A stretch of DNA of 64,000 nt from Escherichia coli (GTDB lineage Bacteria > Pseudomonadota > Gammaproteobacteria > Enterobacterales > Enterobacteriaceae): the NCBI RefSeq assembly GCF_046105845.1, contig NZ_CP151004.1, one strand, 5' to 3'. A program made the position numbers and the translations under genes. This document shows, piece by piece, positions 12,784 to 59,874 of the stretch. The first letter of the stretch is position 1, and every line of letters begins with the position of its first letter. Below the pieces are notes generated by a model. The model made no database searches, had not been told where the DNA came from, and saw only the letters and a list, made by a program, of their open reading frames with translations.

Positions 12784-12859
12784 TGGTGGGTCGTGCAGGA
12801 TTCGAACCTGCGACCAATTGATTAAAAGTCAACTGCTCTACCAACTGAGCTAACGACCC
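12784..12859 (-). tRNA. lysV: tRNA-Lys (anticodon UUU)
   Basis: Reverse complement matches canonical E. coli tRNA-Lys including CCA end. Confidence 0.95.
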
Positions 12860-12863
12860 GAAG

Positions 12864-12939
12864 TGGTGGGTGATGACGGGATCGAACCGCCGACCCCCTC
12901 CTTGTAAGGGAGGTGCTCTCCCAGCTGAGCTAATCACCC
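12864..12939 (-). tRNA. valY: tRNA-Val (anticodon UAC)
   Basis: Reverse complement matches canonical E. coli tRNA-Val(UAC) including CCA end. Confidence 0.95.
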
Positions 12940-12985
12940 ACTTCGGTACTTCACATTTTTACAAGAAATTTAGCTGGTGAGAAAG

Positions 12986-13061
12986 TGGTGGGTGATGACG
13001 GGATCGAACCGCCGACCCCCTCCTTGTAAGGGAGGTGCTCTCCCAGCTGAGCTAATCACCC
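12986..13061 (-). tRNA. valX: tRNA-Val (anticodon UAC)
   Basis: Second identical tRNA-Val copy, 46-bp spacer. Confidence 0.95.
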
Positions 13062-13105
13062 ACTTCTCAATTTCTTGCTACACGGCGGAGACTACATAAA
13101 GTAGT

Positions 13106-13181
13106 TGGTGGGTGATGACGGGATCGAACCGCCGACCCCCTCCTTGTAAGGGAGGTGCTCTCCCAGCTGAGCTAATCACCC
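13106..13181 (-). tRNA. valU: tRNA-Val (anticodon UAC)
   Basis: Third identical tRNA-Val copy; first gene of the operon. Confidence 0.95.
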
Positions 13182-15879: not shown

Positions 15880-15955
<76 letters not shown>

Positions 15956-15994
15956 AATTTTGCACCCAGCAAATTTGGTACGTAAACGCATCGT

Positions 15995-16070
<76 letters not shown>

Positions 16071-57671: not shown

Positions 57672-58919
57672 ATGGCACTGAATATTCCATTCAGAAATGC
57701 GTACTATCGTTTTGCATCCAGTTACTCATTTCTCTTTTTTATTTCCTGGTCGCTGTGGTGGTCGTTATACGCTATTTGGCTGAAAGGACATCTAGGATTA
57801 ACAGGGACTGAATTAGGTACACTTTATTCGGTCAACCAGTTTACCAGCATTCTATTTATGATGTTCTACGGCATCGTTCAGGATAAACTCGGTCTGAAGA
57901 AACCGCTCATCTGGTGTATGAGTTTCATTCTGGTCTTGACCGGACCGTTTATGATTTACGTTTATGAACCGTTACTGCAAAGCAATTTTTCTGTAGGTCT
58001 AATTCTGGGGGCGCTCTTTTTTGGCCTGGGGTATCTGGCGGGATGCGGTTTGCTTGACAGCTTCACTGAAAAAATGGCGCGAAATTTTCATTTCGAATAT
58101 GGAACAGCGCGCGCCTGGGGATCTTTTGGCTATGCTATTGGCGCGTTCTTTGCCGGTATATTTTTTAGTATCAGTCCCCATATCAACTTCTGGTTGGTCT
58201 CGCTATTTGGCGCTGTATTTATGATGATCAACATGCGTTTTAAAGATAAGGATCACCAGTGCATAGCGGCGGATGCGGGAGGGGTAAAAAAAGAGGATTT
58301 TATCGCAGTTTTCAAGGATCGAAACTTCTGGGTTTTTGTCATATTTATTGTGGGGACGTGGTCTTTCTATAACATTTTTGATCAACAACTCTTTCCTGTC
58401 TTTTATGCAGGTTTATTCGAATCACACGATGTAGGAACGCGCCTGTATGGTTATCTCAACTCATTCCAGGTGGTACTCGAAGCGCTGTGCATGGCGATTA
58501 TTCCTTTCTTTGTGAATCGGGTAGGGCCAAAAAATGCATTACTTATCGGTGTTGTGATTATGGCGTTGCGTATCCTTTCCTGCGCGCTGTTCGTTAACCC
58601 CTGGATTATTTCATTAGTGAAGCTGTTACATGCCATTGAGGTTCCACTTTGTGTCATATCCGTCTTCAAATACAGCGTGGCAAACTTTGATAAGCGCCTG
58701 TCGTCGACGATCTTTCTGATTGGTTTTCAAATTGCCAGTTCGCTTGGGATTGTGCTGCTTTCAACGCCGACTGGGATACTCTTTGACCACGCAGGCTACC
58801 AGACAGTTTTCTTCGCAATTTCGGGTATTGTCTGCCTGATGTTGCTATTTGGCATTTTCTTCTTGAGTAAAAAACGCGAGCAAATAGTTATGGAAACGCC
58901 TGTACCTTCAGCAATATAG
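57672..58919 (+). CDS. cscB: Sucrose:H+ symporter (LacY-like oligosaccharide:H+ symporter, MFS)
   Basis: 415-aa 12-TM MFS ORF downstream of cscK. Confidence 0.85.
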   Translation: MALNIPFRNAYYRFASSYSFLFFISWSLWWSLYAIWLKGHLGLTGTELGTLYSVNQFTSILFMMFYGIVQDKLGLKKPLIWCMSFILVLTGPFMIYVYEPLLQSNFSVGLILGALFFGLGYLAGCGLLDSFTEKMARNFHFEYGTARAWGSFGYAIGAFFAGIFFSISPHINFWLVSLFGAVFMMINMRFKDKDHQCIAADAGGVKKEDFIAVFKDRNFWVFVIFIVGTWSFYNIFDQQLFPVFYAGLFESHDVGTRLYGYLNSFQVVLEALCMAIIPFFVNRVGPKNALLIGVVIMALRILSCALFVNPWIISLVKLLHAIEVPLCVISVFKYSVANFDKRLSSTIFLIGFQIASSLGIVLLSTPTGILFDHAGYQTVFFAISGIVCLMLLFGIFFLSKKREQIVMETPVPSAI

Positions 58920-59360
58920 ACGTAAACTTTTTCCGGTTGTTGTCGATATCTCCATATCCCTCAACCGGAAAATAGTAATACAAAAATGCTTAGCCCAACT
59001 AATAATCACCTAATCCAAACGCCTCATTCATGTTCTGGTACAGTCGCTCAAATGTACTCCGGATACGCGGTTCGCTGATTTCCAGGACATTGTCGTCATT
59101 CAGCGACCTGTCCCGAGTATCACGGGCCTGCGAATTCATCAAGGAATGCATTGCAGAGTGAAGTATCGAGTCACGCCATATTTCGCTATCAGGATTCTGT
59201 ATGATGGTTACATCGCCCGGCCCAGGGCTGTTTAGTCATCAGCGCTTTCTGACAGTGCTGAGATTTCAACCTGTTGCAGTAAAAATGAGTAGATATAGGG
59301 CAAGTGTGCTGCCAAACCCATCTTTTACGGGGTGAAGGTAGATATTGTTAGAAGGGTATC

Positions 59361-59375
59361 TGGTGTCCCCTGCAG
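59361..59375 (-). other. Prophage attachment-site core (attR): 15-nt copy of the 3' end of tRNA-Arg argW
   Basis: Minus strand reads CTGCAGGGGACACCA, identical to the 3' terminus of argW as I recall it; directly flanks torI as at the K-12 KplE1 attR. Confidence 0.6.
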
Positions 59376-59448
59376 ACATCTACTTGACGCGGCAGGGGAT
59401 TGATTGGAATGGTGTTTTTTGGATGTGAGAAATATTTTACCCGCTATT

Positions 59449-59649
59449 TTACCCATTGGCGCGGCTTAAGAGCTTATTTTTGAATTCACAATGGTCACGA
59501 TATAACCATCTTGCTCGCCCGTGGATAACTTTAGCTTTTGGCAGGTCGCCGGACTTAATCCGGTCATAGATGAAGGTTTTACCGAAGCCAGTATCGGCCA
59601 TGATGAATTTCAAATCAACCAGTGAATCAGGTTGTAGTTCGTGTTGCAT
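59449..59649 (-). CDS. torI: Excisionase / recombination directionality factor TorI (start taken at MQHELQPDSL)
   Basis: 66-aa translation MQHELQPDSLVDLKFIMADTGFGKTFIYDRIKSGDLPKAKVIHGRARWLYRDHCEFKNKLLSRANG recognised as TorI; winged-helix Xis-like. Confidence 0.8.
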   Translation of the reverse strand: MQHELQPDSLVDLKFIMADTGFGKTFIYDRIKSGDLPKAKVIHGRARWLYRDHCEFKNKLLSRANG

Positions 59650-59668
59650 GAGTGCTATCTCCAAATAG

Positions 59669-59684
59669 GGAATCGAACCTGCAA
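59669..59684 (-). other. 16-nt sequence identical to the argW T-arm segment immediately preceding the att core, separated from the core by torI
   Basis: Minus strand TTGCAGGTTCGATTCC; with the 59361-59375 core it reconstitutes the last 30 nt of argW. Confidence 0.45.
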
Positions 59685-59706
59685 ATCAGGCAATAAAAAA
59701 CCGCCA

Positions 59707-59874
59707 TCAGGCGGCTTGATGTTCTTTCAGTTCTTCAATTCGAATATTGGTTACGTCTGCATGTGCTATCTGCGCCCATATCATCCAGTGGTCATAGCAG
59801 TCGTTGATGTTCTCTGCTTCGATAACTCTGTTGAATGGTTCTCCATTCCATTCACCTGTGACTCGGAAGTGCAT
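59707..59874 (-). CDS. Small prophage ORF (55 aa), hypothetical
   Basis: ATG-initiated ORF MHFRVTGEWNGEPFNRVIEAENINDCYDHWMIWAQIAHADVTNIRIEELKEHQAA followed on the minus strand by a GC hairpin and T-run. Confidence 0.35.
   Translation of the reverse strand: MHFRVTGEWNGEPFNRVIEAENINDCYDHWMIWAQIAHADVTNIRIEELKEHQAA

Follow-up and report, generated by a model that had tools for sequence, protein, structure and literature searches.

A short copy of the argW T-loop (GTTCGATTCCC) lies just upstream of torI, the recombination directionality factor (RDF) gene of an argW-integrated Escherichia coli prophage, and we are confident that it is a selected cis-element and not one part of a split attachment core. 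The best explanation overall, to which we assign a probability of about 0.45, is that the motif is a phage-borne copy of the left (B) half-site of attB, positioned at the edge of the torI module and bound by recombination proteins.

The window (the whole stretch of E. coli chromosome that was analysed, 64,000 nucleotides) carries the right end of the prophage at position 59361, from which the element runs on to the end of the window. K-12 relatives match the window only over 59699-59361 (97% identity), with a different flank and a different upstream gene, and the window is therefore not K-12. Next to attR, the chromosome has the sequence that naturally follows argW, as found in prophage-free strains; K-12 has dsdC there instead. 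The region 58999-59360 encodes a 50-aa DUF4942 remnant, followed by an oligosaccharide MFS transporter (57672-58919), and the DUF4942 fragment may be a trace of an island that once occupied argW. Coordinates of the features are collected in Table 1.

Table 1. Features of the prophage end, the torI upstream region and the ordinary tRNA clusters of the window.
Feature	Position	Strand	Remarks
attR core CTGCAGGGGACACCA	59361-59375	-	The 15 nt that end argW (pawZ in the K-12 annotation)
Putative 7-bp overlap TGCAGGG	59368-59374	-	From the alignment of 20 att sites
Putative inverted half-sites GATGTC / GACACC	Either side of overlap	-	From the alignment of 20 att sites
Degenerate T-loop-like left core site AGTAGATGTC	59375-59384	-	Starts in the arm; last base common to the core
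Arm, torI stop to core	59376-59448	-	73 bp; two GGGTAAAAT direct repeats and the inverted overlap copy
CCCCTGC, inverted copy of overlap	59392-59398	-	About 17-20 nt left of TGCAGGGG (59367-59374)
GGGTAAAAT direct repeats	59446-59454, 59434-59442	-	Match the arm-type IntS motif, TAAA core
torI, 66-aa recombination directionality factor	59449-59649, stop included	-	100% identical to HK620 HkaC / Sf6 gp18 / K-12 TorI
torI Shine-Dalgarno GGAG	59659-59662	-	Within conserved GGAGATA
Motif GTTCGATTCCC	59668-59678	-	argW T-loop, the opening two bases of the 3' T-stem and a C; reaches 59682 when CAGG is included
Upstream 16-mer TTGCAGGTTCGATTCC	59669-59684	-	argW T-arm segment; same sequence is "attL core/attR core" in the CUS-3 GenBank record
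TTGCCTGATTTGC, lambda pI CII box homologue	59681-59693	-	TTGC-N6-TTGC, here N5; cII site in the HK620 record
Intrinsic terminator hairpin, then T-run	59698-59717	-	Downstream of the orf55-like gene
lambda orf55-like gene, 55 aa	59707-59874	-	Also in lambda and in O157 lambdoid prophages, in which lambda-type xis-int come next
tRNA cluster Lys-Val-Val-Val (valU-lysV)	12784-13181		Ordinary tRNA genes
tRNA cluster Ala-Ala (alaXW)	15880-16070		Ordinary tRNA genes

The preliminary description had reported two minus-strand pieces of argW on either side of torI. Both proved identical to the intact argW of the unoccupied (prophage-free) strain E. coli KE47 (L001 1441-1515), which served as reference. 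KE47 argW reads ...GGGCTAATTGCAGGTTCGATTCCTGCAGGGGACACCA, in which the 16-mer directly precedes the core with one C in common; the pieces thus adjoin in the true tRNA gene with a 1-nt overlap, and together they rebuild the last 30 nt of its 3' end (...CTAATTGCAGGTTCGATTCCTGCAGGGGACACCA). As had also been described, torI (59649-59449), its ribosome site and the 73-bp arm with its two GGGTAAAAT repeats stand between them. The 16-mer is unique in the window. With as many as 3 mismatches allowed, three sites were found where 0.54 are expected, and the closest other site is the lysV T-arm with 2 mismatches; for the core, no second site appears even when 2 mismatches are allowed. The presence of the two argW pieces is not due to chance. 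ARAGORN found no tRNA in the region. Alignment with KplE1 of K-12, proposed earlier as a check, recovered the same 16-mer there, and it also occurs in the virion genomes of Sf6 and HK620, which makes it phage-borne. No further copies of the motif were found in the Sf6 genome or the window, which argues against a multi-site regulator.

The identity over 16 nt is true, and yet the description of the piece as a 16-nt segment of the argW T-arm needs to be narrowed. Its leftmost TTGC belongs to the homology with the lambda pI region, which ends at 59681, and the specifically tRNA-like part (AGGTTCGATTCC) comprises 12-14 nt; as a phage-borne element, the motif measures 11-14 nt. In the E. coli phages, as the alignment indicates, the 16-nt length is a matter of chance, the adjoining TTGC of the lambda-pI-like box having extended the match to argW.

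The attP and attR sequences of relatives were surveyed by aligning the 20 nt left of TGCAGGG to argW in 20 att sites or lineages. TTCGAT at positions -9 to -4 left of the overlap was 80-90% identical to the tRNA, while positions -3/-2 were always GT where the tRNA has TC. In most lineages, attP/attR has its own degenerate T-loop right beside the overlap (ATTCGATGTA followed directly by TGCAGGG; in Chronis, CAGGTTAGATGTA followed by TGCAGGG), and this remnant is probably the left core-type site, to judge from the alignment. GATGTC or GGTGTC forms an inverted repeat of GACACC around the 7-bp TGCAGGG. An arm-type IntS motif with a TAAA core has been described for KplE1 (PMC2951348), and the arm-type motifs vary by lineage (GGGTAAAA vs GGGCATAA). 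The inverted copy of the overlap is found in most lineages and, in Edwardsiella-type elements (L018, L358), changes together with the core (TCCCTGCA with TGCAGGGA), which suggests a second core-type site or a hairpin. The intS-side arm repeats of Erwinia phage phiEt88 (L023 2300-2420) are CGATGTAAC/GCGTTAC, not GTTCG, and resemble that phage's own left core site TTCGATGTA; in the KplE1-type and phiEt88 lineages alike, the arm repeats look like pieces of the T-loop-derived core flank. Three predicted prophage contigs (L281, L282, L285) and about 35 other IMG/VR loci end exactly 3 nt past the torI stop, which means that automated boundary calls drop the 73-bp arm and the core.

To follow the motif across relatives, torI-homologue loci were taken from annotated phages, one genome per species, viral contigs and contigs encoding diverse family representatives. 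The motif GTTCGATTCCC, usually after CAGG, precedes the RDF gene in E. coli/Shigella, Citrobacter, Enterobacter, two Pantoea (including P. stewartii), Edwardsiella, a MAG locus (L013), Salmonella phage g341c, Erwinia phages phiEt88 and Midgardsormr38 and the metagenomic locus L357. In these elements, 4-7 nt separate it from GGAG(A/T)A, and the RDF start codon follows at a distance of 25-30 nt. Two tandem copies occur in Midgardsormr38 (period 16) and in L357 (period 13); Enterobacter has one copy and one degenerate copy, and one Edwardsiella-type phage a decayed copy. The sequence just left of the motif is unrelated between lineages (lambda-type pI, a 5' remnant of xis, or other genes), and the motif thus forms the left edge of a conserved torI-attP-intS module. 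It is lacking at the RDF loci of Chronis, EhrS_49, Tatumella L016, L020/L021 and L269, and at several loci with more distant RDFs; in Chronis, L272 and L274 the RDF gene adjoins or overlaps the upstream gene. Several close relatives therefore function without the motif, which makes it dispensable for recombination.

Compared with the window, the RDF of phiEt88 is 45% identical with a third-position identity of 0.30, and that of g341c 48% identical with a third-position identity of 0.38; the motif is 11/11 identical in both (binomial P ~1.6e-6 and ~2.7e-5, respectively, before correction for about 50 possible positions). Polymorphism among 80 E. coli loci was low (CCC>CCA in 5/80, TTCC>TTAC in 2/80 and GTTCG>GTTTG in 1/80), and the variants seen in torI-family modules were GATTTCC, GATTCCT, CAAG... 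and the decayed GTTAGACTCCC. Such comparisons of sequence indicate that the motif is conserved far above the neutral level and is under selection. The bases of the 5' stem differ (AGG/AAG/ATG/ACG/CGG) and the 3' CCC is constant, a pattern that suits a linear motif better than a hairpin.

In KplE1, PtorI is non-characterised and expression of the RDF constitutes the excision switch (PMC2951348). In the window, the lambda alignment pairs lambda TTGCGTGTAATTGC with TTGCCTG-ATTTGC and ends past the second TTGC. The HK620 record labels the 13-mer TTGCCTGATTTGC a cII site and the next 26 nt a "phage integration" promoter, and the Sf6 record names the region pI and places it in boundary sequence bsq2. 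In K-12 and roughly a quarter of 80 E. coli loci, TTAC takes the place of the first CII half-site, and the box homologue has probably ceased to be a working CII site. In other loci (K-12 ypdJ, L267 600-635; L022 1900-1960; L357 1241-1295; L011), the first ~18 codons of a xis gene (MESHSLTLDEAC...) lie left of the module. We take this remnant, which is ypdJ in K-12, to be P22-type xis, and the torI module appears to have replaced an older xis-int module via a joint inside xis.

Several alternatives concern the attachment site itself. That the 16-mer is the true crossover site would agree with the CUS-3 record (CP000711; L003 2577-2592, L004 1-16), which begins and ends there and labels the repeat attL/attR core, and the repeat was thus noticed earlier, yet it is not the crossover site; we give this reading a negligible probability. 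The 1,193 bp that form the right end of the CUS-3 record match UTI89 with 100% identity, and UTI89 has torI and the real core just beyond, so that the comparison corrects the annotation of the CUS-3 end. In UTI89, torI occupies L268 1913-2113 and is followed by dsdC, and the CUS-3 record stops 20 bp short of torI; the RDF gene is probably missing from it. The 16-mer also lies 293 bp inside the element of the window and upstream of torI in virion genomes, and a synthetic query for the argW::torI junction matched 0/5,426 complete E. coli genomes. The core in the literature is a different one, a duplicated att core of 16-17 bp: CTGCAGGGGACACCAT in KplE1 (PMC2951348) and, in Kapi1, the KplE1 core plus one base, which its authors state to match Sf6 and HK620 (PMC8787464). 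At 59361-59375, by comparison, KE47 matches from the core into the flank, and the attP of Sf6 and HK620 share the core. The preliminary description had favoured an ancestral attP with at least 30 nt of contiguous argW identity, into which torI and its promoter were inserted between the T-arm part and the core. The exact adjoining of the two pieces in argW speaks for this history, which is nevertheless very improbable and, as an insertion of torI, wrong. In most of the 20 lineages, attP/attR keeps its own TTCGAT remnant beside the overlap; the tRNA-derived segment has therefore stayed joined to the core in diverged form, and the comparison of related attPs shows the upstream piece to be an additional copy, closer than the remnant to the attB version of the half-site, and not a displaced half. 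The TTGC moreover comes from the lambda-like flank, the motif elsewhere begins CAGG, AGG or GTTCG and finishes CCC rather than CCT, and the supposed insert holds arm-type repeats. No relative of the form orf-terminator-TTGCAGGTTCGATTCCTGCAGGGGACACCA-P arm-intS, without torI, was found among phage, genome and viral-contig loci. What looks like an elegant split core can arise artefactually where two unrelated segments abut. An extra copy could, on the other hand, be a non-functional relic of an old att junction, formed by tandem accretion of two argW elements and a later deletion, with GGAGATA as the decayed GGGGACA of the acceptor arm and the relic carried along passively at the module edge. 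Such an origin of the copy would be speculative; a relic agrees with the spacing from motif to GGAGATA in Midgardsormr38 (equal to that of the tRNA, with 7/14 identities after CC), with the CCTG kept in Pantoea L015 and with junctions to lambda-type and P22-type xis regions that fall directly left of the motif. A neutral relic would not, however, stay 11/11 in comparisons whose synonymous sites are saturated, there is little similarity past the motif, and a GGAG can be expected upstream of any gene, all of which renders absence of function improbable. On paper, a single site-specific att recombination does not yield the arrangement, and every origin scenario requires illegitimate joints.

Two further alternatives leave the motif functional without a recombination protein. 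As an RNA element of the torI leader, it would act as an anti-Shine-Dalgarno (4-bp UUCC/GGAG pairing), a processing site or a standby site that tunes the translation of TorI from read-through transcripts. This accords with the distance to the Shine-Dalgarno, which is fixed at 4-7 nt with a variable spacer sequence, with the constant orientation, with the TTTC/TTTCC variants of L012 and L014, which pair better with GGAGAT, and with a predicted hairpin that includes UUCC/GGAG. We nevertheless regard it as unlikely, as the RNAalifold consensus reached only -2.16 kcal/mol with 0 compensatory pairs, the single-sequence fold (z-score -1.8) was dominated by the terminator, no AACCTG/CGAAC partner for long-range pairing is conserved within the torI coding sequence, Rfam gave nothing above threshold and the GTTCGA half of the motif is left unexplained. 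A sub-threshold Rfam match to the sRNA STnc130 (59599-59726, plus strand; 28 bits, gathering score 55), which covers the torI start, motif and terminator in antisense, is probably driven by the terminator hairpin. A tRNA gene or tRNA-like RNA was also considered and rejected (no ARAGORN hit, no Rfam hit above threshold, unconserved 5' stem, RNAalifold -2.2 kcal/mol without covariation). The motif could instead be the spacer of a CII-dependent, pI-like promoter and be conserved with it, given the HK620 and Sf6 annotations, the real pI box TTGCGTGTAATTGC at the homologous position in lambda and the exact 13 nt that the motif fills from the second TTGC to TATTTG/TATTCG. The odds of this are low, for the box has N5 and not N6, its first TTGC is TTAC in K-12 and many E. 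coli, a sigma-70 scan found no promoter, the box is missing from most lineages outside E. coli, and Midgardsormr38, L015, L017/18, g341c and phiEt88 have the motif without a TTGC box or a -10-like hexamer.

A site for recombination proteins kept near the RDF gene, which the preliminary description had offered as its other option, is the best current reading of the motif. It agrees with the GTTCG pentamer, the identity to the attB left half-site and the conservation; the binding that it assumes is predicted. Tentatively, on the grounds of its sequence, we propose that the motif may be bound by IntS and/or TorI and may thereby control torI. The motif would stand as a copy of the attB left half-site (the argW T-loop) at the 5' edge of the mobile torI-attP-intS module. 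There are two candidate binders: IntS, whose core-binding part has to read this sequence in the attB of each lineage, and TorI, since its recognition pentamer GTTCG is part of the motif. Protein over the translation/promoter region of torI would tie expression of the RDF to occupancy by recombination proteins, possibly through IntS that spans from the motif to the GGGTAAAAT arm sites, some 225 bp downstream, with torI looped out.

On the side of the integrase, GTTCGATTCC in the motif is identical to positions -11 to -2 of argW relative to TGCAGGG, i.e. to the attB left half-site. On the side of TorI, the sites have been defined by GTTCG/GATCG/GTCCG, and GTTCG is the pentamer that was mutated to abolish them (PMC2951348); TorI represses PintS through such pentamer sites. 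The motif CAGGTTCGA holds the pentamer in a CAGTTCGC-like octamer, it resembles TorI sites I1-I5 (CAGTTCGC, TGGTTCGC and others), and its GGTTCG is that of site I4 (TGGTTCGC, derived with the coordinates of PMC2951348 and L004). None of the published TorI and IntS sites falls at the motif. The arm repeats of phiEt88 (CGATGTAAC/GCGTTAC) differ while its motif is the same, and g341c is consistent with co-variation; constancy of the motif while arm-type motifs and the phiEt88 arm repeats, which occupy the TorI-site positions, change favours a specificity fixed by the tRNA (attB), and the phiEt88 case argues against TorI specifically. The tandem periods of 13 and 16 nt, compared with 10-11 nt between TorI sites I3-I5, likewise count against a TorI-type array. 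An integrase would for its part bind only weakly to an isolated core-type half-site without an overlap region.

It is doubtful, although conceivable, that the module mimics its own chromosomal target so that the integrase and/or RDF that read attB also gate TorI synthesis. In a metagenome scan, tRNA-Arg(CCU) genes with the Edwardsiella-type 3' end TGCAGGGAACGCCA were found at L360 260-334 (an attL with a g341c/phiEt88-type arm), L361 1039-1113, L362 386-461 and L364 605-675, with the T-arms GCAGGTTCGATCCCTGC, GCAAGTTCGATTCTTGC, GCAGGTTCGAATCCTGC and GCAGGTTCGATTCCTGC. The T-loops of such genes read GATTCC, GATCCC, GATTCT and GAATCC in hosts unmatched to the prophages. Within viral contigs, the Edwardsiella-type core TGCAGGGAACGCCA occurred only in attP/attR forms and in an unrelated phage tRNA-Arg(UCU). 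A search of viral contigs for modules mimicking other tRNAs (GGTTCGAATCC..GGAG..ATG) returned ordinary tRNA genes in 120/120 matches, none of them before a TorI-like ORF. In a distant AlpA (P0064), an "SSIP" within the N-terminal extension turned out to be a false lead.

The argW-integrating family (KplE1, HK620, Sf6, CUS-3, Kapi1 and relatives) is present in a large share of E. coli genomes, and its integrase is constitutive; excision is decided through expression of the RDF gene. A conserved tRNA-mimicking element at the control region of that gene is a concrete handle on excision control. If the gating by attB-reading proteins were true, it would amount to a feedback on the excision switch so far undescribed for any phage, and the resemblance of RDF sites to the core flank (GTTCG in the KplE1 type, CGATGTA in phiEt88) would follow from an RDF that also acts at the core/attB.

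The recombination module as such is well known; we found no description of the T-loop motif in the literature searched, and the conserved copy at the module edge appears to be undescribed. The window shares with KplE1 (CPS-53), HK620, Sf6 and CUS-3 a 100% identical TorI protein, the same core and arm repeats and a module with attP between torI and intS (PMC2951348, PMC3509656), and K-12, Sf6 and HK620 carry the 16-mer. The location of int and xis at opposite prophage ends, noted in the preliminary description, is stated in the literature (PMC2951348, PMC8787464) and agrees with the order torI-attP-int in Sf6 and HK620. Relative to KplE1 as published, the differences are the upstream gene, the flank and the T-loop motif, which is absent from the described TorI, IntS and IHF sites.

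Upstream of lambda xis, pI with its CII box offers a parallel in the homologous orf55, the terminator, the TTGC...TTGC box and its position relative to the RDF gene. The module departs from lambda at 59681, where the homology ends, in the N5 spacing and polymorphic first half-site, and in having a P4-type Int and an AlpA-type RDF instead of lambda Int/Xis. The direct repeats of tRNA fragments that integration creates (pawZ in K-12) match the 3' part of the target tRNA, as the 16-mer does; unlike them, it is internal to the phage, is there before integration, does not include the crossover region and forms no junction. Among dual-function RDFs, P4 Vis, P2 Cox and 186 Apl also bind promoters. 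The motif likewise puts an RDF pentamer, GTTCG, by a gene of the recombination module, as in the repression of PintS by TorI; unlike the targets of such RDFs, it is one site (two in some lineages) with an unusual, conserved tail, ATTCCC, and binding here is predicted. Lastly, the motif recalls the boundary sequences of lambdoid mosaics, since it lies inside bsq2 of Sf6, at a mosaic junction, but it reaches beyond the boundary linkers of close relatives in being kept in Erwinia, Pantoea, Edwardsiella and Salmonella modules whose RDFs are 45-48% identical.
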